64,000 nt of DNA, from positions 84,614 to 148,613 of the forward strand of contig CAZWYF010000002.1 of NCBI GenBank assembly GCA_964637835.1, read 5' to 3'. Shown piece by piece: positions 406 to 37,775 of the stretch (the first letter of the stretch is position 1; every line of letters begins with the position of its first letter). A program made the position numbers and the translations under genes. The DNA is from an uncultured Fibrobacteraceae bacterium (GTDB lineage Bacteria > Krumholzibacteriota > Krumholzibacteriia > LZORAL124-64-63). The notes under the pieces are model-generated. The model was not told the DNA's origin, made no database searches, and saw nothing but the letters and a program-made list of their open reading frames with translations.

Positions 406-3400
406 ATGGATCTGGCCGTCGGCATTCCCGCCCTGTCCCAGGCCCTGCCGCCGCTCCCGGGCGCGCTGCAGGTGGCGGCCGCCATGGCGGCCGCCGTCCT
501 GGGACTGGTGCTGGCGCTGGTGGCCCAGCTGGCCTGGCGGCAGGCTGGCGCGGCGCCCTGGCGTCGGCTCCGCTTCTGCGGCCTGGCCCTGGTGGCGGCC
601 GCGGTGCTGCGCGGTCTGGCCACCCAGGCCACGCCGGCCGCGGGGCCGTTGCTGGGGGCGGCGCTCTCGGTGCTGGACCTGGTGGTGCTGGCCCTGATCC
701 TGGTGGCGACGTTGCAGGCGGGCCCCGCCGGCCGCGGGAGAGTCGTGCTGCTGGTCGCGCCCGCGCTGGCGACGCTGTTCCTCGGCCTGCTCGGCGGCGA
801 CCCGCAGGCCTCGCTCCTGGCGCGCAGCCTGCCGGCGGCCCTGGCGCACCTGGCCACCCTGGCGCTGGTGGTGGGCGTGGCGCAGGTGGAGTTCGACGCC
901 CGCACCCGCCGCGCCTGGCGCGACGCCGAGGCCCGTGCCGACCAGCTCCTGTGCGAGCGGCAGGCCCTGCAGGGCCGCGTGGAGGCGGCCGAGGCGGCGA
1001 GCGCCGAGGCCGACGGCCGCGCGGCGCGCAGCGTGGAGCTCGCGCGCGACGCCGGCCGCCGGGCGCGCCTGCTCGAGCACCTGCTGGCCGGGACGGTGGA
1101 ACTGTCGGCCCGCCGAGATCCCCGCGACCTGCTCCAGCACGCGGTGGAACTGGTGGGATTGCTCTTCGGATTCCAGCAGGTGGCGTTGCACCAGTGGTCG
1201 GAGTCCCTGGTCGCATTCGGCGTGCAGGCCACCACCGGCTGGTCGGAGGACGATGTCCAGCGCCTGGTGCACCAGCCCATCGACCGCGCCGGCTACGACC
1301 ATCTGGTCCACCCGCGCTTCCGGGTCTCCGACAGCTTCCTCGTGCCGCCGCCGGCGGTCGCCTGGCCCCCCGGCGGCCCGGCCGACGAGGTGGCCTGGCC
1401 CGAGGGCCAGCGCCTCATCGTGCCGTTGACCGACGCCAGCGGCACCGTCCACGGCTTCCTCGACCTGCAGCATCCGGAGTCCGGCCGCGCTCCCGACCTG
1501 CTGCGCATCCGCTATCTCGAGCTCCTCGCCCGCCAGGTGGCCGCCCTGCTGGACGTGCAGGAGGTGCGCGAGCATCTGGCCACCTGCCGCGCCGAGCTGG
1601 CCCACGCCGCCGACCGCCTGCAGGCCCTGGGCGACCTGCGCAGCAACTTCGTGGCCAACGTCAGCCACGAGCTGCGCACGCCGCTCACGTCGATCATCGG
1701 CTACACCGAGATGCTCCGCGACCGCGGCGAGGACATGTCCCGCGAGGTCCGCGAGGAGTTCCTGGACGTGATCCTCGAGCAGGGCCAGCGCTTCAAGGAG
1801 ATCGTCAACGACCTCCTCGATCTCGATCGCGCCGAGGAAGAGGCCGTGCGCATGGAGCGCACCGAGTGCGACCTCGCCGCCCTGACCCGCCGCCTGGCCG
1901 AGGACTGGCGCCAGCGGGCGGAGAAGCATGGTCGCCGGCTGACCGTCGAGGCCGGCCGCACCGCGATCCTGCTGGAGGCCGACCCGGTCCTCTGCCAGCA
2001 GCTCCTCGGCCACCTGGTGGATAACGCCCTGAAGTTCACGCCGCCCGACGGCCACATCGGCGTCCAGGTGACCGAGCAGGGCACCGCCGCCCGCATCGAG
2101 GTGGAGGACAGCGGCATCGGGATCCCGGAGGAGAAGCTGCACACCATCTTCGAGCAGTTCTACCAGGTGGACGGGTCCAGCACCCGCGAGGTGGGCGGCC
2201 AGGGCATCGGCCTGGCCATCTGCCAGGACATCGTCAGCTGGCACGACGGCCGCATCTGGGCCGAGAACCTGCCCGGGGGCGGGACGCGCTTCACCGTGCT
2301 GCTGCCGCGCCGGCCGCGCGTGGTGATGCCCGATCCGCCGGCCGCGGTGGATCCCGTGCTCCAGGAGCCGCGGCTGTTCCTGCAGCGATTGATCCACTGG
2401 GTGGGCGAGAACCTGGGCGTGCGCAACGCCGTGGTGCTCACCGTCGACCACGACGACGAGCACCTCACCGCCCTGGCGGCCACCGGCCTGCCCGCCGGAC
2501 AGCTCCAGGAGCTGCGCCTGGCGCCGGGCGTGGGCCTGGCCGGACGGGTCTGGCAGGAGCGCCGCAGTTCGCTCGAGATGCCGCCGGCCGGCGACGTGCT
2601 CCTGGCCGGCGAGTCGCCCGCCCTCTGCGTACCCCTGATCCGGGACGACCGGGTGCTCGGGGTGGTGGCGGTACGCGACCGCGTCGACGGCCGGCCCCTC
2701 GGGGACGACGACCGCCTGCTGCTCGAGGCCATGGCGCCCCAGCTGGCCATGCTCCTGGCCCGCTTCGACGCCCATGACCACCTGCTGCGCGACTTCGCCG
2801 CGGTGCAGTCCTCGCTGCGCGTGACCACCCGCGTGGGCAGCCTGCCCCACGCCGACGTCGCGGGCGTCTGCCAGGCGATCTGTCTGGCCACCGCCCGGCG
2901 CCTGGGCCTGCCCGAGGCCGACGTCCGCCACCTGGCCTTCGCCCTGCAGTACTACGACGTGGGCCTGGGCAGCGTGCCGCCCTACCTCCTGGCCAAGACC
3001 GGCCCGCTCACCGATGGCGAGCGCGCGCAGCTCGAGCGCCACGTCCAGGTGGGCCTGGTGACCCTGGCGCCGCTGCAGCTGCCGCCCAAGGTGCGGCAGA
3101 TCATCCTGCACCATCACGAGAACTACGACGGCTCCGGCTACCCCAAGGGGCTGGTCGGCGAGGCCATCCCTCTCGGCTCGCGCCTGATCGCCCTGGCCGA
3201 CAGCCTGCGGGCCCTGCTGCAGCGCCGGCCCTGGCGGCCGGCGGTGCCCCTCTCGGAGGCCCTGGCGGAGATCCAGGCGCTGGCCGGCACCCGGTACTGC
3301 CCGCGACTGACCGCCGTCTTCCTGGAGGAGGCCGCCCGGCGCCGCGCCCTCATCGAGGACCTGCGCCAGCGCGCCGACGACGGCGAGGATCTCAAGCGGC

Positions 3401-3438
3401 CGGTGCCGCTGCACCCGGTGCAGCTGGTCCGCCACTGA
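406..3438 (+). CDS. Membrane-anchored hybrid sensor histidine kinase. About 5 N-terminal TM helices and an Ala/Arg-rich coiled coil, then HisKA+HATPase_c, a GAF domain and a C-terminal HD-GYP-like domain.
   Basis: H-box 'NVSHELRTPLTSIIGYTEMLRD'. N/G boxes 'LVDNALKFT', 'VEDSGIGIP', 'GGQGIGLAI'. GAF region 'VGLAGRVWQERRSSLEM...VLGVVAVRD'. HD-GYP signature 'HHHENYDGSGYPKGL' is intact, but the HD dyad reads 'YDVGL' instead of 'HDIGK'. Confidence 0.8.
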   Translation: MDLAVGIPALSQALPPLPGALQVAAAMAAAVLGLVLALVAQLAWRQAGAAPWRRLRFCGLALVAAAVLRGLATQATPAAGPLLGAALSVLDLVVLALILVATLQAGPAGRGRVVLLVAPALATLFLGLLGGDPQASLLARSLPAALAHLATLALVVGVAQVEFDARTRRAWRDAEARADQLLCERQALQGRVEAAEAASAEADGRAARSVELARDAGRRARLLEHLLAGTVELSARRDPRDLLQHAVELVGLLFGFQQVALHQWSESLVAFGVQATTGWSEDDVQRLVHQPIDRAGYDHLVHPRFRVSDSFLVPPPAVAWPPGGPADEVAWPEGQRLIVPLTDASGTVHGFLDLQHPESGRAPDLLRIRYLELLARQVAALLDVQEVREHLATCRAELAHAADRLQALGDLRSNFVANVSHELRTPLTSIIGYTEMLRDRGEDMSREVREEFLDVILEQGQRFKEIVNDLLDLDRAEEEAVRMERTECDLAALTRRLAEDWRQRAEKHGRRLTVEAGRTAILLEADPVLCQQLLGHLVDNALKFTPPDGHIGVQVTEQGTAARIEVEDSGIGIPEEKLHTIFEQFYQVDGSSTREVGGQGIGLAICQDIVSWHDGRIWAENLPGGGTRFTVLLPRRPRVVMPDPPAAVDPVLQEPRLFLQRLIHWVGENLGVRNAVVLTVDHDDEHLTALAATGLPAGQLQELRLAPGVGLAGRVWQERRSSLEMPPAGDVLLAGESPALCVPLIRDDRVLGVVAVRDRVDGRPLGDDDRLLLEAMAPQLAMLLARFDAHDHLLRDFAAVQSSLRVTTRVGSLPHADVAGVCQAICLATARRLGLPEADVRHLAFALQYYDVGLGSVPPYLLAKTGPLTDGERAQLERHVQVGLVTLAPLQLPPKVRQIILHHHENYDGSGYPKGLVGEAIPLGSRLIALADSLRALLQRRPWRPAVPLSEALAEIQALAGTRYCPRLTAVFLEEAARRRALIEDLRQRADDGEDLKRPVPLHPVQLVRH

Positions 3439-4006: not shown

Positions 4007-6112
4007 ATGCCCCGACCGAACCTCGCCGCCCCGTCCGCTCGACGGGGCGGCCGTCCCCGTCCCCGCGAGGTGGTCGTGGAGCGCCTGCTGGTCGACGTCG
4101 CCCTGCCCGTGCCCCTGACCGGCCCCTTCACCTACCGCTGGACCCCGGCGGTGGCGGGGGGCGTGCCGGAGGCCGGCGACCTGGTGCGGGCGCCCTTCGG
4201 GCGGCGGCGGGGCCTGATCGGGCTGGTGGAATCGGTGCGCGAGGATCCCGAGGCCGTCACCACGGTGGGCGGCACGCCGCTGCGCGATCTCGTGGCCGTG
4301 CTGCCGCCGGCGTACCGTCTGGACACGGCGCGCCGGGCCCTGGCCGCCTGGCTGGCCGGGTACTACGCGGTACCCCTCGGCGAGGTGGTCCCGCTGTTCC
4401 ATCCCCCGAAGCCGGAGACCCGCGGCCGTCGGTCGCGCCTCGAGATCCCGGCCTTTCCCCTGCAGGAGTCGCCGGACGTGCCCGATCCCACGCCGGCCCA
4501 GGCCCGCGTGATCGCGGCGGCGGCGGAGCTGCTGGCCGCCGGGCGGTTCGGCTCGCTCCTGGTGCACGGGGTGACCGGCAGCGGCAAGACCGAGGTCTTC
4601 CTGCGCGTCATCGCCGACGCCCTGGACCGGGGGCGGGGCGCGCTCTACCTGTTGCCCGAGATCGCGCTGACGCCCCAGACCCTCGCGCGCATCGCCGCGC
4701 GCTTCGGCGACCGTGCGGCGGCCATCCACAGCGGCCTGTCCGCGGGGGAGCGCTGCCGGGTCCACGAGGCGGCCGCCGCGGGGGAGATCCAGGTGGTGGT
4801 GGGGCCCCGCTCGGCCCTCTTCGCGCCGGTGCGCGATCTGGGCGTGGTGGTGGTGGACGAGGAGCACGAGACCAGCTACAAGCAGGACGAGAAGCCCCGC
4901 TACCATGCGCGCGACGTGGCCCTGGTGAGGGGTCGTCAGGCCGGGGCGGTGGTGCTGCTGGGCTCGGCCACGCCGGACCTGACGAGCTGGTCGCGGGCGC
5001 GCGAGGGCAAGCACCAGCTGCACGTGCTGGCCGACCGGGTGGGCGGCGCCGACCTGCCGCGGATCGAGCTCATCGACCTGCGGGGCGAGGCGCCGCAGGA
5101 CGGCTTCAGCGAGCCGCTGCTCGAGGCGGTGGCCGAGACGGTGGCCGCGGGCCGGCAGGTGATCCTCTACCACAACCGCCGGGGCTTCGCCCGCCAGCTG
5201 CAGTGCCGCGACTGCGGCGTGGTGGTGATGTGCCCCCACTGCGACATCGGCCTGACCTGGCACCTGCGTCCTCGCCGCCTGCTCTGCCACTACTGCGGCC
5301 ACGCCCGCGAGGTGCCGGCGGCCTGTCCGGAGTGCCGGGCGGAGGCGTTCCTGCCCGCCGGCGGGGGGACCGAGAAGACCGAACTGGTGCTGCGGGCCAC
5401 CCTGCCGGAGGCGACCATCCTGCGGCTCGATCACGACACCACCCGCCGGCGGGGCAGCCACGCCCGCATCCTCACGCAGTTCGCCGCCGGGAAGGCCCAG
5501 ATCCTGGTGGGAACCCAGATGGTGGCCAAGGGGCACCACTTCCCCGGCGTGGCGCTGGTGGGAGTCCTGGCGGCCGACGATGGCCTCTCGCTGCCGGACT
5601 ATCGCGCGGCCGAGCGGGTGTTCCAGCTGCTGACCCAGGTGGCCGGCCGGGCGGGACGCCGTGACGCGGGTCAGGTGCTGCTGCAGACCTGGCAGCCCGA
5701 GCACCCGGTGATCCTGGCCGCCGCCGACCATGACTACGCCGGCTTCGCCATGGCCGAGAGCGCGCACCGGCGGCGGGCGGGCTATCCGCCCTTCCAGCGC
5801 CTGATCCGGCTGGGTGTGACCGGTCCACGGCAGGCCGACACCGCGCGGGCGGCGGCCCAGCTCGCCGCCGCGGTCGAACGGCAGCTGGGTGGTCGCACGA
5901 AGGCGGGCGCCGGCGACGGCGGGCTGGAGGTCCTGGGCCCGGCACCCGCCGTCTTCGCCCGGCTGCAGGGGCGCTACCGCCAGCAACTCCTCCTGAAGGG
6001 GACCCTCGACCGGGGGCAGAAGGCCTGGCTCGCCCGCTGCGCGCAGGCGCTCCGGGAGGCGCACCGCGGCCTGGACGTGGCCCTCGACGTCGATCCGGCC
6101 GGACTGTTCTGA
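4007..6112 (+). CDS. priA: Primosomal protein N' (PriA replication-restart helicase)
   Basis: Walker A 'GVTGSGKTEV', DEAH-like 'VVDEEHETSYKQDE', Cys4 zinc-binding 'CRDCGVVVMCPHCD...CHYCGH...CPECRA'. The six-frame ORF begins at 3791 and overlaps the REC gene; ATG at 4007 precedes the conserved PriA N-terminus 'VERLLVDVALPVPL'. Start is uncertain. Confidence 0.85.
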   Translation: MPRPNLAAPSARRGGRPRPREVVVERLLVDVALPVPLTGPFTYRWTPAVAGGVPEAGDLVRAPFGRRRGLIGLVESVREDPEAVTTVGGTPLRDLVAVLPPAYRLDTARRALAAWLAGYYAVPLGEVVPLFHPPKPETRGRRSRLEIPAFPLQESPDVPDPTPAQARVIAAAAELLAAGRFGSLLVHGVTGSGKTEVFLRVIADALDRGRGALYLLPEIALTPQTLARIAARFGDRAAAIHSGLSAGERCRVHEAAAAGEIQVVVGPRSALFAPVRDLGVVVVDEEHETSYKQDEKPRYHARDVALVRGRQAGAVVLLGSATPDLTSWSRAREGKHQLHVLADRVGGADLPRIELIDLRGEAPQDGFSEPLLEAVAETVAAGRQVILYHNRRGFARQLQCRDCGVVVMCPHCDIGLTWHLRPRRLLCHYCGHAREVPAACPECRAEAFLPAGGGTEKTELVLRATLPEATILRLDHDTTRRRGSHARILTQFAAGKAQILVGTQMVAKGHHFPGVALVGVLAADDGLSLPDYRAAERVFQLLTQVAGRAGRRDAGQVLLQTWQPEHPVILAAADHDYAGFAMAESAHRRRAGYPPFQRLIRLGVTGPRQADTARAAAQLAAAVERQLGGRTKAGAGDGGLEVLGPAPAVFARLQGRYRQQLLLKGTLDRGQKAWLARCAQALREAHRGLDVALDVDPAGLF

Positions 6113-6344
6113 TCCTGATTTCGCGGGGCCCGTAACCCGTTCTCGCGCGATGGGCTGCCATCACGAGGGGGCTTCCGGGGAACGGTTCGCAGCAGCGCCG
6201 GGCCACCGGTACGAAAATTGATCCACGGTTTCGTGAGGTTCACGATGTATGCTTGAGCGGTGCCCGCTGCCCGTTCCGCGGCGCGGCCGCGTGCAGCCTG
6301 CCTGCCACGCGCCGCCGCCCGTTTCCGTGCCGAGGAGGCCGACC

Positions 6345-9300
6345 ATGACCCGCCGTCCGTCGCCGCGCGCCGCCGCGCGCCCGATCCTGCTGCTGCTGCT
6401 CGCCGCCAGCCTGCTGTCCCTGGCGGCCGCCACGGCCCTCGCCGAGCAGACCTACACGCGCGGCTTCGTCCCCCCGGAGAACTGGGAACGGATCCTCGAG
6501 GAGCGCCGCGTCCTCTACCCGCCGAACAAGGATCCGCTGCCCACCCACTGGGACTGGCGCGCCCACGAGGGCGTGACCCCGCCCAAGGACCAGGGCAGCT
6601 GCGGCTCCTGCTGGGCGTTCGCCGCCGCGGGCGAGATGGAGGCCAAGATCCGCATCGAGTACGGCAAGGTGCTGGACCTCTCCGAGCAGCAGATCATCTC
6701 CTGCAACCCGTACGGTTCCGGCTGCAACGGTGGCTGGGCCGGCTCGGCCTACTACGTCTTCATGCATCATGGCGGGGTCATGGAGCATTGCATGCCCTAC
6801 GAGGGCAGCGACGACGTGCCCTGCGCCCAGGACGACTACCTCCAGTTCACCACCATGGATACCTGGCATTCCCTCGCCAACGACGTCCAGCAGATCAAGA
6901 CCGCGGTCTACAACGACGGGCCGGTCTGCACCGCGGTGGACGCCAACGACGCCTGGGACGACTATGGCGGTGGCGTCATCGACGCCCAGGGCTACGGCAC
7001 CAACCACCTGGTGCTCATCGTCGGCTGGGACGACCGCATGGGCGCCGATGGCGCCTGGATCGTGAAGAACTCCTGGGGCGCGGGCTGGGGCGAGGCGGGC
7101 TACTGCTACGTGGCCTACGGCGCCACCAGCATCGGCACCGGCGTCACCTCCCTGAGCTACACGCCGCCGCCGGTGGACGTGGGCGTCTCCTCGCCGCCAG
7201 CCGACGTCCAGGTCTTCGGCGACGCCCCCCTGACCATCACCTGGAACACCTCCGGCGAGCCGGTCGATCAGGTGGATCTCTACTACGGCACCGTGGGCAA
7301 CTGCCCCTCCGAGCCCATCGCCCTGGGCCTGCCCAACACCGGCAGCTACGAGTGGGTGGTGCCCAACGTCACCACCGACCGCGCCACGGTGCTGGTCCTG
7401 CCCAGCGAGGGGACCGAGCAGGGGTTCGGCTTCAGCGAGGGCGAGTTCGCCATCCTCGGTCACCAGACGCGGTACGTCTCGCCCTCCGGCGGGGACATCC
7501 CGCCCTACGACGCCCCCGACCGGGCGGCGCGCTCCATCGTCGACGCCGTCCTCGCCGGCGCCGGCCGCGACACCATCATGATCGCCGCCGGCGACTACCT
7601 CGAGAGCTCCATCACGGTGAACTCGCCCGCGCATCTCATCGGCGGCTGGAGCGCCGATTTCGCCACCCACGATCCCGACCTGCACGTCACCCGCCTGCGC
7701 GGCGTCTACGGCACCTTGCGCTTCAGTTCCGCGGCCGGCGACTATTGCGGGGTCAGCGGCATCACCTTCCACGACTGCCAGGCGGCGGTGAGCACCACGC
7801 CGGTCAACGGCCGCCATGGCGCGGCCATCCTGGCCCTCGATGCCTCGCCCGTGATCACCGATTGCGTCTTCATCGGCAACCGGGCCGATCCCGGCATGAG
7901 CCTCGGCTGGGGCGGGGCGGTCCTGGCGCACGGCGGCTCGCCGGTGATCCGGGACTGCGAGTTCATCGGCAACATCGGCAGCCACGGCGGCGCCCTGGCG
8001 CTGTCGTCCTGCGACGGCGCGCTGGTGGAGGACTGCACCTTCCTGGCCAACAGCACCAGCGACAGCTCCACTGCGTACGTCGGCGGCGCCATCCACGTGT
8101 CCGGCGGCGAGGCCACCCTGCGCCGTGCCGAACTGCGGGCGGGCGGCTCGGGACGGGGCGGCGGTCTGGCGATCACCGGCGGCGCCCAGGTGGTGGCCGA
8201 GGACCTGGTCCTCGCCGACAACCGGGCTCTGGTGGCGGGCGCCGGCGTCCACGTGGACCAGGCGGCCAGTCTGCAGCTGATCCGCGGCGAGGTGGTGGCC
8301 AACGCCCTGCACACGGGCAGCGGCAACGGCGGCGGCCTGGCGGCCAGCGAGGCGACCCTGACCCTCGTGGGCGTCCAGTTCCGCGACAACACGGCGCCGG
8401 GAATCGGCGGCGGCATCTACGCCCAGGGCCTGGCCGGCGGCAGGCTGGAGAACTGCCTGCTCCGCGGCAACACGGGTCAGACCGGCGGCGGGGTCTTCGT
8501 GGCCGCGAGCGGGCCCTACCAGGTGCGCAACAACGTGGTGGTGGGCAACCTGGGCGGCGGCCTGTTCGCCGGCGGGCCGGAAATGGTGAGCGATTACAAC
8601 CTGGCCCACGACAACGCGGGCGGCGATTTCCAGTCGGCCCCCGGGGAGCACGACCACGTGGCGGCGCCCGTCTTCGCCGACGCGGCCGGGGGCGACTTCG
8701 CGCCCGGCCTGCACTCGCCGCTCCTCGACAGCGGCGATCCGGCCACCGGCGAGGACTGGGACGGCGGGGCCGTGGACCGCGGGCCGTACGGCGGTCCGCT
8801 GGCCGTGCCCAGCGGACCGGGCCGCGTCACCGGGCTGGCGGGCTCGCAGCAGGATGGCGTGGTGAGCCTGAGCTGGGACGCGAGCCCCGACGCCGTCGCC
8901 TACGCCGTCTACCGCGACACCGCGGCGGTGTTCCTGCCCGGGCTGACCAGCCTCTGCGCCCTGGTCGACGCGCCCGCGACCTCCTGCGATGATGCGCCGC
9001 CCGCGGGGGCGGACTGGTACTACCTGGTCGGCGCGCTGGCGGCCGATGGCCGCGCCGGCGGCTTCAGTGCGCGATACGAGGCCGGTGGCACCAGCGTGCC
9101 GGTGGCGGACGGGGGCCTGCCGCGGGCCCTGGCCATCGGCAGCGTCGCGCCCAATCCCTTCAATCCGCGCACCGTGGTGCGGTTCGCGGTCCCGGACGCC
9201 GGGCCGGTGCGCCTGCAGGTCTACGACCTGCGGGGCCGTCTGGTGCGGACGCTCCATGCCGGGCGCCTGGAGGCCGGCAGCCACACCGTCGCCTGGGACG

Positions 9301-9401
9301 GCAGCGACGCGCGGGGGCGCGCCGCGGCGGCGGGCGTCTACTGCGTGCGCCTGGATGACGGGCAGCGCGCGGTGACGGTCAAGGCGGTGCTGGCCAAGTA
9401 G
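6345..9401 (+). CDS. Secreted papain-like (C1A) cysteine protease fused to right-handed beta-helix repeats, ending in a T9SS type-A sorting domain
   Basis: ATG 6345 preceded by GAGGAGG. Signal peptide 'RPILLLLLAASLLSLAAATALA'. Catalytic Cys 'QGSCGSCWAF', His 'NHLVLIVGW', Asn 'KNSWGAGWGEAGY'. Repeated 'GGA..V.GG' beta-helix units. T9SS tail 'NPFNPRTVVRFAVPDAGPVRLQVYDLRGRLVRTL...GVYCVRL'. Confidence 0.88.
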   Translation: MTRRPSPRAAARPILLLLLAASLLSLAAATALAEQTYTRGFVPPENWERILEERRVLYPPNKDPLPTHWDWRAHEGVTPPKDQGSCGSCWAFAAAGEMEAKIRIEYGKVLDLSEQQIISCNPYGSGCNGGWAGSAYYVFMHHGGVMEHCMPYEGSDDVPCAQDDYLQFTTMDTWHSLANDVQQIKTAVYNDGPVCTAVDANDAWDDYGGGVIDAQGYGTNHLVLIVGWDDRMGADGAWIVKNSWGAGWGEAGYCYVAYGATSIGTGVTSLSYTPPPVDVGVSSPPADVQVFGDAPLTITWNTSGEPVDQVDLYYGTVGNCPSEPIALGLPNTGSYEWVVPNVTTDRATVLVLPSEGTEQGFGFSEGEFAILGHQTRYVSPSGGDIPPYDAPDRAARSIVDAVLAGAGRDTIMIAAGDYLESSITVNSPAHLIGGWSADFATHDPDLHVTRLRGVYGTLRFSSAAGDYCGVSGITFHDCQAAVSTTPVNGRHGAAILALDASPVITDCVFIGNRADPGMSLGWGGAVLAHGGSPVIRDCEFIGNIGSHGGALALSSCDGALVEDCTFLANSTSDSSTAYVGGAIHVSGGEATLRRAELRAGGSGRGGGLAITGGAQVVAEDLVLADNRALVAGAGVHVDQAASLQLIRGEVVANALHTGSGNGGGLAASEATLTLVGVQFRDNTAPGIGGGIYAQGLAGGRLENCLLRGNTGQTGGGVFVAASGPYQVRNNVVVGNLGGGLFAGGPEMVSDYNLAHDNAGGDFQSAPGEHDHVAAPVFADAAGGDFAPGLHSPLLDSGDPATGEDWDGGAVDRGPYGGPLAVPSGPGRVTGLAGSQQDGVVSLSWDASPDAVAYAVYRDTAAVFLPGLTSLCALVDAPATSCDDAPPAGADWYYLVGALAADGRAGGFSARYEAGGTSVPVADGGLPRALAIGSVAPNPFNPRTVVRFAVPDAGPVRLQVYDLRGRLVRTLHAGRLEAGSHTVAWDGSDARGRAAAAGVYCVRLDDGQRAVTVKAVLAK

Positions 9402-9432
9402 AAGCGCGACAGCGGCCTGCGAAACCCTACCC

Positions 9433-9465
9433 GGGGCGTCGTATATTGCGGCGCCCCTTTTACTT
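9433..9465 (+). terminator. Intrinsic terminator-like hairpin after the protease gene
   Basis: GGGGCGTCG-tatattg-CGGCGCCCC (9-bp stem with one G.U pair) followed by 'TTTTACTT'. Confidence 0.55.
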
Positions 9466-9565
9466 GTGTCGCTCCGGGCTGCTACCTACCTTTGCGCGGA
9501 CCGAAAGCCTCCGCTACCGCACGACGCTCTCCGGATGCGCCGAAACTCCACAAGGAAGGTGACTG

Positions 9566-32877: not shown

Positions 32878-32982
32878 TCGACCTCTCGTCCAGATTTCTT
32901 TGCAACCTTCCCGGTGCGATCCGTATCTTCAGATACCCCCCGCGTTGACCATGAACTCCCTGACCGCTTCAGGAGGGACATC

Positions 32983-35900
32983 ATGGCGCGCAAGCTCTTG
33001 ATCGGATGGACCCTGGCGACCCTCGCGCTGGCCGGTGCCGCGGTTGCCGACGACGGAATCATGCCGGACCAGTTGCTGGACCGGCTCACGGCCCGCTCCA
33101 TGGCCCATCAGGGCCAGGTGGCCGCCACGACCGACCTGGCCAGGGCGTCGGGCGACACCATCTACCTGCTCGGTGGCCCCGACCGCCTCGACGGCCGCTT
33201 CGAGGACGCCAACGGCCAGCCGGACTGGCACGACTGGATCACGGTGGACTTCACCGACGCCGGCATGGACAATGCCTGGCACGTCCAGGACCAGTACGTC
33301 CTCTCGGGCAGCCACTCCATGATCTGCGCCGCGGACATCCCCCAGCCCGATGGCTCGGTCTGGGGCTACGGCAACAACTGGCGCATGACCCTGCTGCAGT
33401 CCCACACCGTGGACGACCCCTCCCAGACCAGCACCCTGCGCATCACCGGTACCCTGCGCGTGGACACCGAGCCGCAGTACGACTACGTCTACCTCCAGGT
33501 CCAGAAGGCGGGTACCTGGGTGGACATCGACGCCGAGGCCGTCTGGGACGGCGTCCAGGACGTCGGCTTCGACTTCTCCACCAGCTTCCGAGCCGGCGAT
33601 TACTCCGGCTCGGGCGACGATGAGATCCGCATCCGCTTCTACTTCGCGTCCGACAGCATGGCCTCCGATCAGGACGGGGATTACGACTCCGACGGCGCCT
33701 GCCTGCTGGACGACATCACCGTGGCGATCGACGGCGCGGTGGTCGCCTTCGACGATTTCGAGGACGGCACCAGCGGCAACTGGGTCGGCGAGGTGCTGCC
33801 GGGCGCCGGCGATTTCGCGGCGCTCTACGGCAATCTCCAGGACCTCGATCCCTGCCGGAGCAACAGCTCCATCCAGGTGGCGTTCGTCGATAACGGCATC
33901 GTGGTCCCCGGTACCGGTGGCACGCCGTGCATCACCTGGTGCTACGGCCCCGAGGGCTACATCGTCAACAACACCGGCGGCCTGCTCGGCCCCGAGAACC
34001 ACGTGGAGAACGGCATCGTCTCGCCACCGCTGCGGTGGCAGGAAGGCCATGACGCGGCCGAGTTGGCGCTGAGCCTCTTCGTGCACGAGCCCATGCACTC
34101 GACCTCCGGCGGCACCATGTTCATCTGGTGGGTGCGCAGCACCACCGCCGACGACCCGGCCATGCTCGAGCATGCCGAGTGGACCAGCAACTACACCCTC
34201 TGGTACGGCTCGCCCATCTACGTCAACCATGCGGCGGATCTGACCAGCCATCTCGAGCCCGGCCGCAAGTGGTTCCAGGTGCGGCTGGAGGTCTGGGAGG
34301 CCGGCTGGATCTTCGGCGTCGAGGGTTCCGACGGTACGCCGCACCCCTACCTCGACAACGTGCGGATCCGCAGCTATCCCTCGGGCGGCCCCGCCATCTC
34401 GCACAACGAGCTCTTCCTGGCCCAGTCCAGCTTCCCCGAGCACGGCGACATCGACTTCGGCAACCTCGGGGGCAACTCCATCCGTTTCGACGCCGCGCGC
34501 AACATCAGTCCCACCGCCCACCTGCGGAACGACCCCGGCGACTCCCTCTGGGTGGACGTGGTCCCGGTGCGCGAGGGCTCGACGCTGCCCCAGCTCCCGC
34601 AGATGGTGGTGCGCATGAAGGCCAACCCGCTGTTCGACGACGTGCGGGCGCTACCGCCAGGCTTCAGCCAGGACGGCGAGGTCATCACCGGCACGGTGGT
34701 CGGCGACTCGACCTACAACGGCAACACCGGCGAGCTGGTGGCCGACCGCTACAACTTCGACCTGCCGGACACCGGCTTCTTCTACCCCGGCGACGTGATC
34801 CACTACTACTTCGAGGCCTGGGACGACCGGAACGGCGACATCGGCCACACCATGCTCCCGGCCGACACCACCGGCTTCGCCAGCTTCGCGCACGACCTCG
34901 GCTACCCCAGCGACTTCATCTGCCGGGGCCTGCCCACGCTGTTCAGCGATGCCCCCGGCGATCAGCCGAAGATCCTGCTGTGGAACGACTTCGCGGACTA
35001 CGGCGGCGAGAACGAGTGGTACCATGCGCTGTCCGGCGCTGGCCTCGTCGAGGGCGTGGACTACGACATCTACTACACCATCTCGCCGGACGCGGGCGAG
35101 GGGAACGGCCTCGGCGGCCGCGCCACCAGCGCCGTGCTCGACGGCTACGACATCCTGCTCTACACCAGCGGCACGCTGTTCGTCTACACGCTGGGCGACG
35201 GCGATTTCGCGACCGATCCCTCCCAGGACATCCAGTTGCTCAACGCCTGGTTCGCCCGCGGGGGCAAGAAGGCGTTGTTCACCGGCGACGATCTGGTGAA
35301 CGACCTGATGGACGGCGGTTCGCTCGGCCAGGCGCTCGTCAACAACTACCTGGGCGTCCAGTTCTTCGACAACTCGCTCGTCGACTACATCGGCCGCCAG
35401 ACCGCGCCCACGGTGCGCACCTACTCCGGCAACGGCTTCCTGCCCAGCGTGGGCACCTGGATCGCGTATGGCGGCTGCCTCGGCATCAACACCTTCGACG
35501 CGGTGCAGACGGTGGGTTCGGCGCAGAGCCTCGCCGAGTTCACCGACGCCAACGGCAACGGCGGCGTGTACCCCTACACCGCCGCGGTCTACAACTACAA
35601 CGAGACCACCGACACCGAGGTGATCTACCTGCCCTACGACTTCATGTTCGTCTACAATGCGCCCGGCTACGTGCCGCCCGGGGGCCTGGAGGGGCTGCCC
35701 GCCCGTGCGGTCATGCTGCGCGACATCCTCAATGCCTTCGGCCAGCAGCTCGACGGCCCCATCGGCGTGGAGGACACGCCGGCCGTGCAGGCCGTGGATG
35801 TCATGGCCTATCCCAATCCCTTCAACCCGCAGACCACCCTGGCGCTCAGCCTGCCGCGCGCCGGTCACGTGAGCGTGAAGATCTTCAACGTGCGGGGCGA

Positions 35901-36063
35901 ACTGGTCCGCACGTTGCAGGACGGAGCGCTGACCGCTGGCCGACACGAGCTGCGCTGGGACGGCCGCGACACCGACGGGTCGCGGCAGGCCTCCGGCGTC
36001 TACTTCGCCGAGACCCGCGCCCTCGGACAGACCGAGGTCACGCGCATGGCCATGATCAAGTAA
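32983..36063 (+). CDS. Large secreted protein of unknown function (1027 aa) with a T9SS type-A tail
   Basis: AGGAGGGA RBS. Signal peptide 'LLIGWTLATLALAGAAVA'. Asp/Gly/Trp/Tyr-rich beta-type body. Tail 'YPNPFNPQTTLALSLPRAGHVSVKIFNVRGELVRTL...GVYFAETR'. One HExxH-like string 'HEPMH' whose context is not convincing. Confidence 0.6.
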   Translation: MARKLLIGWTLATLALAGAAVADDGIMPDQLLDRLTARSMAHQGQVAATTDLARASGDTIYLLGGPDRLDGRFEDANGQPDWHDWITVDFTDAGMDNAWHVQDQYVLSGSHSMICAADIPQPDGSVWGYGNNWRMTLLQSHTVDDPSQTSTLRITGTLRVDTEPQYDYVYLQVQKAGTWVDIDAEAVWDGVQDVGFDFSTSFRAGDYSGSGDDEIRIRFYFASDSMASDQDGDYDSDGACLLDDITVAIDGAVVAFDDFEDGTSGNWVGEVLPGAGDFAALYGNLQDLDPCRSNSSIQVAFVDNGIVVPGTGGTPCITWCYGPEGYIVNNTGGLLGPENHVENGIVSPPLRWQEGHDAAELALSLFVHEPMHSTSGGTMFIWWVRSTTADDPAMLEHAEWTSNYTLWYGSPIYVNHAADLTSHLEPGRKWFQVRLEVWEAGWIFGVEGSDGTPHPYLDNVRIRSYPSGGPAISHNELFLAQSSFPEHGDIDFGNLGGNSIRFDAARNISPTAHLRNDPGDSLWVDVVPVREGSTLPQLPQMVVRMKANPLFDDVRALPPGFSQDGEVITGTVVGDSTYNGNTGELVADRYNFDLPDTGFFYPGDVIHYYFEAWDDRNGDIGHTMLPADTTGFASFAHDLGYPSDFICRGLPTLFSDAPGDQPKILLWNDFADYGGENEWYHALSGAGLVEGVDYDIYYTISPDAGEGNGLGGRATSAVLDGYDILLYTSGTLFVYTLGDGDFATDPSQDIQLLNAWFARGGKKALFTGDDLVNDLMDGGSLGQALVNNYLGVQFFDNSLVDYIGRQTAPTVRTYSGNGFLPSVGTWIAYGGCLGINTFDAVQTVGSAQSLAEFTDANGNGGVYPYTAAVYNYNETTDTEVIYLPYDFMFVYNAPGYVPPGGLEGLPARAVMLRDILNAFGQQLDGPIGVEDTPAVQAVDVMAYPNPFNPQTTLALSLPRAGHVSVKIFNVRGELVRTLQDGALTAGRHELRWDGRDTDGSRQASGVYFAETRALGQTEVTRMAMIK

Positions 36064-36064
36064 C

Positions 36065-36119
36065 GTCCGCCAGCGGACGCCGTCCCCCGAGGGCCCCGGG
36101 TCGTCGCGACCCGGGGCCC
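36065..36119 (+). terminator. Two perfect GC-rich hairpins immediately after the large cargo gene
   Basis: CGTCCGC-cag-GCGGACG, then GGGCCCCGGGTCG-tcg-CGACCCGGGGCCC (13-bp perfect stem). Confidence 0.45.
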
Positions 36120-36145
36120 GGTTCATGGAGCGGGCCGGGGCGCCC

Positions 36146-36186
36146 GGCGAGGCTGGCGAGCCGGGCGAGGCTGGCGAGCCGGGCGG
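36146..36186. repeat. 18-bp tandem direct repeat (2.3 copies) in a non-coding region
   Basis: GGCGAGGCTGGCGAGCCG x2 followed by GGCGGCG. Confidence 0.7.
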
Positions 36187-36821
36187 CGATGACCATGGCG
36201 GGGGGCCGAGGTCGGCCGGCACGGAAGACCTGGCGGGAGGAGATCCGGGGGGAAGAGATCCGGTGGGGGGTGTTCCGTCGGTGGTGAGCCAGGCTGGCGC
36301 CTGGAGGAGGTCGAGTCTCGTGGCCGCGAGGGTCGATCCGTCCTCCGAGGCGCTTCACCCGGTCGCAGAAGCGATCCGTTCTGTTCTGATTGTTCGCCAC
36401 CCGGGACGTTGCAAGCGGAGTGCCCGTTGCGAGTCGCCGTTCAATATTCTCAAGTCGTTCAAATACAATGACATGTGGCTGCACCGGCCGCCACCTCGCG
36501 CCGCGGGGACGCGGGGGTGTCAACGCCGTTGATACCCCCGGGGCTGAGCTTGTAACCTGCAGTGATATAATAACATGTGCGATAAACAAAGTTTCTGCCC
36601 GGAGGCCGCCCGCTGGAACCCGTTGCGAGAACGCTGATTCCAGGGCCGGCACGGCGACGGGGCCCCCCGGGGGGCCCCGTCCGCTCGCTGTCCGCTCGTT
36701 CCCTGGGATCCGGCCGCGGGGGAAAAGCCGGTGGCGGTCGCGGATCCGGCTTGTGTTACACTCGCCGGCCGTGTTTGTTCCAGCCGGTCTTCCGTCGCCC
36801 GTCCTCCGGGGAGATGCTGCC

Positions 36822-37775
36822 GTGTCCGAGCTCCGCCATGACGTCCTGCACCAGACCTGGGTGGTCCTGGCTCCCGGCCGGGGCGACCGCCCGCGGGACG
36901 TCCAGCTGCGGACCGAGCCGGCCGCCGCCGGTCCCTGCCCGTTCTGCCCCGGGCAGGAGGCGCAGACGCCTGCCGAGGTCCTGGCCACCGGCCGGCCAGA
37001 CGGCGTGCCGGCCGACCACCCGCCCTGGCGGGTGCGCGTGTTTCCCAACCGCTACCCGGCGGTGACCGGGGCGGCGGGCCGGCACGAGGTGGTGGTGCTC
37101 TCGCCCGACCACGAGCGCGGCCTGGCCGACCTCACCGGCGAGGAGGCGGCCGAGGTCCTCGCCGCGGTGCGGACGCGGATGGCGGAGCTGGAGAGACGGC
37201 CGGACCTGGCGGCGGTGACCTTCTTCCTCAACTCGGGGGCCGGCGCCGGCGCCAGCCTCAGCCATCCGCACGGGCAATTGCTGGCCACGCCGGCGGTGCC
37301 GGCGGTGCTGCGTGCCGAGCTGGGCGCCCTGGCCGCCTGGCGCCGGGACCGGGGGGAATGCCTGCTCTGCGCCGCGCCGGCAGCCGCCGACGTGGTGGCG
37401 GCCGGGCCGCTGGCCCTGGCGTTCGCCCCCCGGGCGAGCCGCTTCGCCTGGGAGACCCTGCTGATGCCGCGACGCCACGAGGCGCGCTTCACCGCCGCCA
37501 CCGACGCGGAGCTCGGCGCGGTGGCCAGCCTGCTGGTCCAGCTGGCGGCCGCGCTGCGCGTCGCGGCCGGTGATCCCGCTTACAATCTGGTCTTGCACAC
37601 CGCCCCGCCCGGGAGCGAGGATTTCCACTGGCACCTGGAGCTGATGCCGCGGCTGGCGCCGCTGGCCGGCTTCGAGGCGGGCACGGGGTTCTTCATCAAC
37701 CCGGTGGATCCGTCCCGGGCCGCCGCCGCCCTGCGGGCCCAGCTACCCGCGACCCCAGCGAGGACCGACCCATGA
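36822..37775 (+). CDS. GalT-like HIT-family nucleotidyltransferase (galactose-1-phosphate uridylyltransferase / ADP-glucose phosphorylase family)
   Basis: Zn-site 'CPFCPGQE'. Active-site 'SHPHGQLLATP' (HxHxQ). 'RVRVFPNRYPAV'. GTG start at 36822 after CCGGGGAG. ATGA overlap with glgA. The in-frame upstream extension to 36390 looks like non-coding translation. Confidence 0.7.
   Translation: MSELRHDVLHQTWVVLAPGRGDRPRDVQLRTEPAAAGPCPFCPGQEAQTPAEVLATGRPDGVPADHPPWRVRVFPNRYPAVTGAAGRHEVVVLSPDHERGLADLTGEEAAEVLAAVRTRMAELERRPDLAAVTFFLNSGAGAGASLSHPHGQLLATPAVPAVLRAELGALAAWRRDRGECLLCAAPAAADVVAAGPLALAFAPRASRFAWETLLMPRRHEARFTAATDAELGAVASLLVQLAAALRVAAGDPAYNLVLHTAPPGSEDFHWHLELMPRLAPLAGFEAGTGFFINPVDPSRAAAALRAQLPATPARTDP

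Follow-up and report, generated by a model that had tools for sequence, protein, structure and literature searches.

Small regulatory RNAs (sRNAs) that are transcribed from sigma-54-dependent promoters are well known in Proteobacteria. For example, the Qrr sRNAs of Vibrio depend on LuxO and sigma-54, and CrcZ/NrsZ of Pseudomonas depend on CbrB/NtrC and sigma-54. The consensus of such promoters is TGGCAC-N5-TTGCW with fixed spacing, and the activator sites that serve them are dyad-symmetric and usually lie 80-150 bp upstream. An IHF site or an intrinsic bend is expected between enhancer and promoter, transcription starts 11-13 nt downstream of the -12 GC and depends on rpoN, and the genome encodes RpoN along with at least one AAA+ enhancer-binding activator with a GAFTGA loop. 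To our knowledge, the phylum Krumholzibacteriota has no cultured representative and no described regulatory RNA. In the Enterobacteriaceae, the glmY and glmZ sRNA genes carry a sigma-54 promoter, GlrR/QseF sites of the form TGTCN10GACA, and IHF sites (PMC3045617). The subject of the present analysis is a gap between genes, at positions 36064-36821 of a 64-kb stretch of DNA from contig CAZWYF010000002.1 (64,000 nucleotides, hereafter the window), which the sequences of its GalT and of the protein encoded upstream of the gap place in the Krumholzibacteriota. As judged from sequence comparison, this gap probably holds a previously undescribed sRNA gene on the minus strand, dependent on sigma-54 and an enhancer-binding protein.

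The left edge of the gap is the TAA stop codon of the gene for a 1049-aa protein (32914-36063), in which the sole recognisable domain is a C-terminal FlgD_ig/type IX secretion system (T9SS) sorting tail. The right edge is the GTG start codon of a GalT/DUF4921-type gene at 36822, and glgA comes next after GalT. The proposed sRNA gene and its control region are made up of the following features, given from the upstream site to the RNA.

36518-36534, centre at about -127: dyad-symmetric site TGTCAACGCCGTTGATA, consensus TGTCAACGnCGTTGACA, a candidate upstream activator sequence
36436-36475, -37 to -76 from the predicted start: AT-rich island 1, the spacer between palindrome and promoter
36410-36424, minus strand: sigma-54-type promoter GGCAC-TCCGC-TTGCA, with the -24 GG at 36424/36423 and the -12 GC at 36412/36411
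36284-36402, minus strand: conserved core of the putative sRNA, from alignment, fold and covariation
36367-36401, minus strand: 5' stem-loop, stem GGCGA with UCGCU and an invariant 19-nt A/C-rich loop ACAAUCAGAACAGAACGGA at 36375-36393
36289-36362, minus strand: irregular 74-nt hairpin with the invariant apical loop CGGCCA at 36321-36326

The comparison set consisted of the window and seven homologous loci (L081, L163, L170, L001, L166, L171 and L173), eight sequences in all, each of the seven having a gap of 580-865 nt after the FlgD_ig ortholog. The identity of GalT to that of the window is 91% in L081, 80% in L163, 66% in L166, 63% in L001 and 56% in L171; no value is given for L170, in which the gene is cut by the contig end, or for L173. 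What is conserved in the gap is a GC-rich block of 119 nt at 36284-36402, with an identity to the window of 93% in L081, 90% in L163 and 87% in L170, and of 66-77% in the other four loci, three of which (L001, L166 and L171) have a GalT that is only 56-66% identical. Four-fold degenerate sites of GalT are less conserved than this block, at 84% in L081 and 69% in L163. The differences within the core include 1-nt indels, and substitutions that lack 3-nt periodicity, which points to a constraint on RNA or DNA and not on a peptide. Positions 1-136 of L081, a JGI contig, are near-pure poly-G; this stretch is an artefact of sequencing or assembly and hides the left part (half) of the gap in that locus.

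The conserved block is not what had drawn attention to the gap. The first-pass annotation of this DNA had stressed the AT-rich islands, a TATAAT box, palindromes and a tandem repeat, had made its proposal depend in part on conservation of the AT-rich blocks in relatives, and had not singled out the block at 36284-36402. The AT islands, the TATAAT box and the tandem repeats turned out to be the least conserved parts of the gap, at ~40-60% identity in L081. The eye-catching AT islands and palindromes would be control DNA, and the functional RNA would lie in an unremarkable GC-rich stretch. No second copy of the element was found in the window or elsewhere in the 288 kb of loci searched, and an exact 30-mer from its invariant part had no match in IMG/VR viral contigs; on these grounds, a mobile or viral origin was rejected. 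The element is also present on Logan contigs of SRR15425352 and SRR15425353 and in metagenome-assembled genomes that include GCA_041390065.1, GCA_003353795.1 and RA.bin123.

On the minus strand, the core block is directly preceded by the sigma-54-type promoter, with a predicted start at ~36399. The pattern GGCAY-N5-TTGCW has a single exact match in the whole window, which is this site, and GGCA[CT]-N5-TTGCA stands at the equivalent place in 8/8 loci, the two elements varying only at base five of the -24 element, which is C or T. The N5 spacers between them read TCCGC, TCCAC, TCCTC, CGTGC, TCCCC, CGGGA, CCTGA and TGCGC across the eight loci. The seven bases after TTGCA also vary between loci, and invariance returns as G(G/A)GTGGCGAACAAT, the invariant RNA sequence restarting 8 nt past the -12 C, at the predicted minus-strand +1. 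This restart would coincide with the place where a sigma-54 transcript starts. A relaxed sigma-54 pattern allowing two mismatches was uninformative (25 matches against 22.5 expected).

Upstream of the promoter, seven of the eight loci have a single copy each of the palindrome TGTCAACGnCGTTGACA, with 0-3 mismatches, and it is unique in the window at ≤1 mismatch. The distance from its centre to the -24 GG is 101-104 nt in all seven loci, across intervening DNA that is not alignable. The first-pass annotation had read the corresponding hairpin, at 36512-36540, as one of two terminators in the gap. The palindromes are indeed there, and for this one the terminator reading was rejected, as no T-run follows the stem and as it is the dyad core CAACGnCGTTG, not the pairing, that is kept; in L081 and L166 the stem is weakened and the sequence core retained. 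The site is better explained as a candidate for binding of an enhancer-binding protein. The island 1 region between palindrome and promoter is AT-rich in all loci, its sequence not being conserved. The IHF consensus WATCARNNNNTTR is matched with ≤1 mismatch at a common offset in L001 (0 mismatches), L081, L166 and L173, and at a shifted position in L170, and island 1 may be a DNA-bending or IHF-type site.

A further observation concerns the plus strand of the dyad (window 36518-36560 and homologs), the right half of which reads TTGACA (TTGATA in the window) and is followed, 16 nt later, by TGTAAC, TGTAAT, CGTAAC, TGTATC or GATAAC in five loci. Together, these boxes could form a divergent sigma-70 promoter over the activator site.

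The consensus fold of the eight sequences on the minus strand contains 35 pairs, with 96.0% of cells paired and 5 pairs changed on both sides. The paired fraction and the covariation score were reached by 0/500 shuffles and the pair counts by 2/500 and 1/500, and slid controls had 39-50% of cells paired against the 96.0% of the core. A covariation analysis against syntenic relatives, suggested as a check by the first-pass annotation and run here on the eight loci, has thus found compensatory changes in the core, which give modest support to a structured RNA. The invariant loop of the 5' stem-loop is proposed as the seed (ACAAUCAGAACAGAAC). A covariance model of the element (R1) scores 134 bits on the window core, a self match by construction, and could be searched against every genome of the phylum.

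Several findings weigh against an enhancer-dependent sRNA. No rpoN gene or RpoN box, and no GAFTGA-type activator, was found in the window or in L001, L017, L163 and L166-L168, and we infer the use of sigma-54 by this organism from the conserved footprint at one locus. A second perfect match to the sigma-54 pattern, at 847-861 of L168, lies upstream of a pyruvate:ferredoxin oxidoreductase operon; it was rejected as support because the matched bases belong to the T-run of an intrinsic terminator that lies downstream of a Peptidase_C1/FlgD_ig gene, and its counterpart in the window (9430-9470) deviates at both promoter elements. This case illustrates how easily the sigma-54 pattern arises by chance in GC-rich DNA. 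L173 is without the full dyad site and has just a half-site nearer the promoter, and the IHF match of the window is poor (2 mismatches by hand count). The covariation statistics, drawn from only eight related sequences, are weak. The terminator scan found no U-tailed minus-strand terminator in the gap, and no nearby target was found when duplexes between the 5' 40 nt of the RNA and the starts of all neighbouring genes were predicted in seven loci (none better than background, favourable z scores all -1.2 or weaker). Lastly, the plus strand folds equally well (-41.7 kcal/mol, vs -41.8 kcal/mol on the minus strand), with 93.5% of cells paired, and has a terminator-like hairpin with a T-rich tail.

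The near-equal fold of the plus strand is as expected of hairpins, and the strands differ in detail. In the covarying hairpin, there are 11 broken cells on the minus strand versus 21 on the plus strand, and several pairs that are U-G intermediates on the minus strand become C-A on the plus strand. A determination of strand from five sequences had ended in a tie (155 Watson-Crick pairs, 18 G-U pairs and 11 mismatches on the plus strand; 161, 20 and 8 on the minus strand). With eight sequences, the structure modestly favours the minus strand; it does not settle the strand by itself.

The alternative that survives best, itself unlikely, is that the core belongs to the plus strand, as a structured element in the 3' untranslated region (3'-UTR) of the FlgD_ig gene or as an sRNA derived from it, with an end at the hairpin GGTCGC-AGAA-GCGATC followed by CGTTCTGTTCTGATTGTTC. 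A 3'-UTR element would have the orientation of all the neighbouring genes and would account for a position that is always right after the FlgD_ig ortholog. The terminator-like site on the plus strand is found in both the window and L171 (in a simple terminator scan of the gap region, the single hairpin with a T-run is on the plus strand at 36361-36376, with 0.6 expected by chance), the plus-strand consensus fold is as stable, and some of the changes are G-U-compatible on the plus strand only. However, a 3'-UTR element gives no account of the GGCA/TTGCA pair, of the dyad at fixed distance, or of the restart of invariance exactly at the predicted minus-strand +1. Between the stop codon and the block there is a strong hairpin, just after the stop, and 170 nt of non-conserved G-rich sequence, the proposed terminator stem is down to 3 bp in L173 (hand pairing), the covarying helix has more broken pairs on the plus strand, and on the minus strand of L171 there is a terminator with a U tail.

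Returning to the minus-strand sRNA, its 3' end would lie in or beyond a variable region between the core and the FlgD_ig gene, with two features.

36120-36283, minus strand: variable 3' part of the putative sRNA, C-rich and G-poor (47% C), with CCUCC-type motifs and both tandem repeats
36091-36119, no strand assigned: inverted repeat of 13 perfectly matched bp around a 3-nt loop, located where the FlgD_ig gene (plus) and the putative sRNA (minus) converge

In the window, L163, L170 and L001, C makes up 43-47% of the tract after the core and G is scarce; the tract is not alignable between relatives. It may act as a Rho-dependent termination region or, alternatively, as an anti-Shine-Dalgarno region, and this is the weakest step in the scheme. 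A hairpin of other sequence stands at the place equivalent to 36091-36119 in L163, L170, L001, L166 and L171. In the window this hairpin has no U-run on either side, and it is probably a shared bidirectional terminator or a hairpin that protects the 3' end. In L171, instead of passing into a C-rich tract, the core is immediately followed by a canonical minus-strand intrinsic terminator, which consists of an 8-bp stem with GTTTTTCT after it; the RNA predicted there is ~150 nt long and has the layout seed, hairpin, terminator.

The proposed course of events is as follows. RNA polymerase with sigma-54 would bind the -24/-12 promoter at 36410-36424, the motif and conservation of which are observed, and would stay closed until an enhancer-binding ATPase on TGTCAACGnCGTTGACA, ~127 bp upstream of the start, touched it by DNA looping. 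AT island 1 may aid this looping, through an intrinsic bend or an IHF-type protein. To judge from the conservation pattern, transcription would begin near 36399 and run leftwards, the RNA of the window ending either in the C-rich tract (Rho-dependent) or at the hairpin 36119-36091, for a length of ~120-310 nt. The product would be a trans-acting base-pairing regulator, with the invariant 5' loop as a seed on U/G-rich target sites elsewhere. The locus can be regarded as a testable four-part module of putative enhancer site, possible bend region, sigma-54-type promoter and putative structured sRNA. The corresponding prediction is that these organisms use sigma-54 and an activator that recognises TGTCAACGnCGTTGACA, which offers a handle for finding its regulon.

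Within the window, the best predicted duplex of the 5' region of the putative sRNA (-29.9 kcal/mol) is at 6086-6125, at the stop codon of priA, and includes a 10-nt exact complement, CUGUUCUGAU. A Peptidase_C1/beta-helix/FlgD_ig gene (6249-9401) lies 130 nt downstream of this site.

The gene with which the element is associated is that of the FlgD_ig protein. The element follows the same FlgD_ig ortholog in every locus. L001 and L166 have an extra FlgD_ig paralog (1011-1013 aa) between the sRNA-bearing gap and GalT, and in the other loci with the gap GalT comes directly after it. Some relatives have a GalT with just 50-200 nt upstream and without the element, and in L167, L168 and L017, in which GalT is present, the element is absent within 10 kb or beside GalT. 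Because a paralog is interposed in L001 and L166, and because there are GalT loci without the element, the element can be said to travel with the FlgD_ig gene and not with the glg operon. The first-pass annotation had offered an sRNA or a regulated promoter of the glg operon as the function of the gap; an sRNA and regulatory DNA are both supported, whereas the link of the element to the glg operon is not.

The FlgD_ig protein (~1020 aa) is encoded in three tandem paralogs in L166 (1-9805) and in two in L001 (11-4838), and by a single copy beside GalT in the window, L163, L170, L171 and L173. The paralog downstream of the sRNA module in L001 and L166 has a clear TTGACC-N18-TACAAT/TAAAAT promoter. 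In a further locus, L172, the FlgD_ig ortholog is followed by different DNA (6766-7028), with no sRNA core in the 260 nt up to the contig end; an open reading frame (ORF) in this DNA looks Cys/His-rich and is possibly of the transposase-type zinc finger kind.

The constant association with FlgD_ig is one ground for a second alternative, in which a convergent sigma-54 transcript is made that reaches or overlaps the FlgD_ig mRNA at its 3' end. It would act in cis on FlgD_ig, either by interfering with transcription or by forming a duplex at the palindromic terminator that the two units share, and not on distant targets. The two units converge in 8/8 loci on the same FlgD_ig ortholog, with the gene on the other side differing; the only hairpin between both genes is a perfect palindrome, usable from either side, and no trans target is seen locally. 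On the other hand, interference would need neither an invariant 5' loop nor a compensatory hairpin, the intrinsic terminator of L171 halts the RNA ~85 nt before the FlgD_ig stop codon, and synteny among such close relatives may just reflect common descent; an effect in cis is quite unlikely. The same low probability is given to a coupling, judged as a whole, in which the RNA would not be a usual seed-pairing sRNA but would be physically tied to one family of T9SS-tail secreted proteins: convergent sigma-54 transcription would set the output of FlgD_ig, the RNA would end either in the C-rich tract through Rho or at the palindromic terminator common to both units, and its hairpin and loop would recruit a protein. 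If true, this would be a new wiring, in a phylum without cultured members, by which an enhancer-binding protein controls secretion cargo.

Between the dyad and GalT, the gap contains three further features.

36550-36600, plus strand: AT island 2 with TGATATAAT, a candidate plus-strand promoter or further sigma-54 control DNA
36656-36681, plus strand: perfect palindrome with 14-nt arms, GACGGGGCCCCCCGGGGGGCCCCGTC, from an inverted-repeat search
36751-36785, plus strand: proximal block CTTGTGTTACACTCGCCGGCCGTGTTTGTTCCAGC, ~90% identical in L081 and L163

These features bear on the version that the first-pass annotation had favoured, in which the AT islands are plus-strand sigma-70 promoters (TACAAT and TGATATAAT) for an sRNA, for a long leader of the GalT-glgA-HK-RR-glgC operon (HK, histidine kinase; RR, response regulator), or for both. 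The features that it named do exist. The islands, at 36425-36486 (minimum GC 0.35) and 36539-36607 (minimum 0.32), contain the window's two 40-nt stretches of highest AT content, and the TATAAT box is present at 36566-36571, with a TG-n before it that makes a perfect extended -10, TGATATAAT, at 36563-36571. ATAYAATRACATGTG occurs twice in the gap, at 36463 and 36565, far above the 0.02 expected from shuffles; a direct repeat of CCCGTTGCGAG (36423 and 36619) was dismissed, its frequency fitting chance. In addition, island 2 of L081 contains TTGACA-17-TAAAAA, the high AT content of this island extends to relatives, five loci share a loose motif, TTAYGnnGrTAAA, and a short transcript could terminate at the hairpin 36656-36681. 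Against such promoters, both boxes and the duplicated motif are missing from L081 and L163, where identity is ~40-60%, and a scan of the gap region with the sigma-70 promoter consensus gave no match. Moreover, GalT loci with 50-200 nt upstream keep the proximal block, which probably puts the operon promoter at 36751-36785, and island 1 suits the bend region of the minus-strand promoter. In place of plus-strand transcription from the TATAAT box, the best-supported transcription is that of the minus strand from the sigma-54 promoter, and the sigma-70 version is very unlikely as a whole. For island 2, it could be partly true beside the sigma-54 sRNA gene, as the island is possibly a plus-strand promoter, or else more of the upstream control DNA of the sigma-54 promoter.

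The hairpin at 36656-36681 is kept in position, ~140-165 nt upstream of GalT, and not in sequence, with equivalents in L001, L170 (~7657-7688), L171 (~7568-7597) and L173 (~7550-7579). Without an upstream paralog it ends no recognisable gene. The window sequence from 36656 to 36821 matches the region after the extra paralog of L001, with the hairpin, then a CTGTCGCTCG-like sequence, and then the proximal block. The hairpin probably serves as a terminator, either for the extra FlgD_ig paralog in loci that have one or, elsewhere, for a short transcript, or else it is a remnant.

As for the glg operon, a GalT ribosome-binding site, GGAGA, is found at 36810-36814, and motifs related to the proximal block (TTGTATCCTAC ... 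GGTTCCC) stand at the same distance from GalT in L001, L002, L171 and L173. Since counterparts of the block are also present in loci that have no long gap, 36751-36785 is the likeliest promoter of the operon, and this stretch is most likely the promoter and 5' leader of GalT-glgA, contained in the last ~75 nt of the gap. Upstream of it, the inverted repeat that had been noted between GGATCCG (36706-36712) and CGGATCC (36741-36747), with a 28-nt spacer, is present; L163 retains it, in L081 it has decayed, and neither L171 nor L173 has it. It is probably lineage-specific and not a conserved operator.

The gap itself is real and non-coding, as had been claimed, with agreement between coordinates, codon-position GC and Pfam checks. 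The GC content of the window is 71% overall. By codon position, that of the gap is flat (0.66-0.73 in six frames), and the third positions of the flanking genes reach 0.93-0.94. The gap ORFs at 36125-36532 (plus), 36355-36474 (minus) and 36056-37048 (minus) had no match in Pfam, and two identical Logan contigs have no called gene inside the gap. Protein coding was rejected on the basis of the lack of Pfam matches, the flat codon-position GC, the non-periodic substitutions and the 1-nt indels. The reported 18-bp tandem repeat was located at 36142-36185 (2.4 copies, 96% matches), and a second one, absent from the first-pass annotation, has a 15-bp unit and 2.2 copies at 36235-36267. The palindromes of the gap are those at 36091-36119 (13-nt arms, 100% complementary), 36512-36540 (14-nt, 93%) and 36656-36681 (14-nt, 100%). 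At the left end of the window (406-3438), an unrelated signalling gene encodes a hybrid sensor protein with HisKA, HATPase_c, GAF and HD_5 domains.

The last alternative, that the gap has no function and is left over, for example, from a deleted FlgD_ig paralog or a mobile element, with hairpins and repeats as by-products of 71% GC, draws on the extra paralog that L001 and L166 have exactly between the element and GalT, on the match of 36656-36821 to the region after that paralog and on the lineage-specific tandem repeats and C/G-rich tract, but is highly improbable, being contradicted for the core, which exceeds synonymous sites in conservation, carries compensatory changes, keeps promoter and dyad at fixed spacing over 56-91% GalT identity and has no further copy in the searched loci or in viral contigs, and would apply only to parts of the gap, namely 36120-36283 and perhaps 36600-36700.

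A scan with Rfam 15 (4227 models, including GlmY, GlmZ, Qrr, CrcZ, 6S and 6C), which the first-pass annotation had recommended, gave no match at gathering thresholds in the whole window, and places no known family on the gap. Permissive searches (E ≤10 for the gap, ≤1 for the gaps of L171 and L166) returned chance matches to miRNAs and hairpins, none of them on the conserved block. A match to the 6C model (RF01066) elsewhere (36588-36685, plus strand) was dismissed as chance, at 19.6 bits compared with a gathering threshold of 47. The C-rich 3' stretches of the putative sRNA resemble 6C RNA and other C-rich sRNAs known from high-GC or Gram-positive bacteria in that they could pair with G-rich ribosome-binding sites, but the sequence of the tract is not conserved and L171 has no such tract.

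By analogy with Qrr and CrcZ/NrsZ, the element would be an enhancer-dependent short regulatory RNA with a conserved unpaired region as its active part. It differs from them in that the Rfam models of those families do not match and in that it has one copy per locus and a C-rich tail; in the case of CrcZ, the A/C-rich loop is not an exact fit to the A-rich AANAANAA motif (hand comparison). A further likeness is to glmY/glmZ (PMC3045617), which share with it the arrangement of a stand-alone sRNA gene with a -24/-12 promoter, TGTC...GACA dyads >100 bp upstream and an AT-rich intervening region, which has IHF sites in glmY/glmZ and may be of that type here. The differences are that the RNA here is without sequence or structure similarity to GlmY or GlmZ in the Rfam scans, that a single dyad site can be made out where glmY/glmZ have three (L001 alone has a weak second copy), that the site reads TGTC-N9-GACA and not N10, and that the phylum is another one. 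In addition, there is neither an adjacent gene for a two-component activator here nor an established overlapping sigma-70 promoter. In comparison with these systems, what would be new is the RNA family, and the kind to which it would belong, that of sRNAs dependent on sigma-54 and an enhancer, is one already known.

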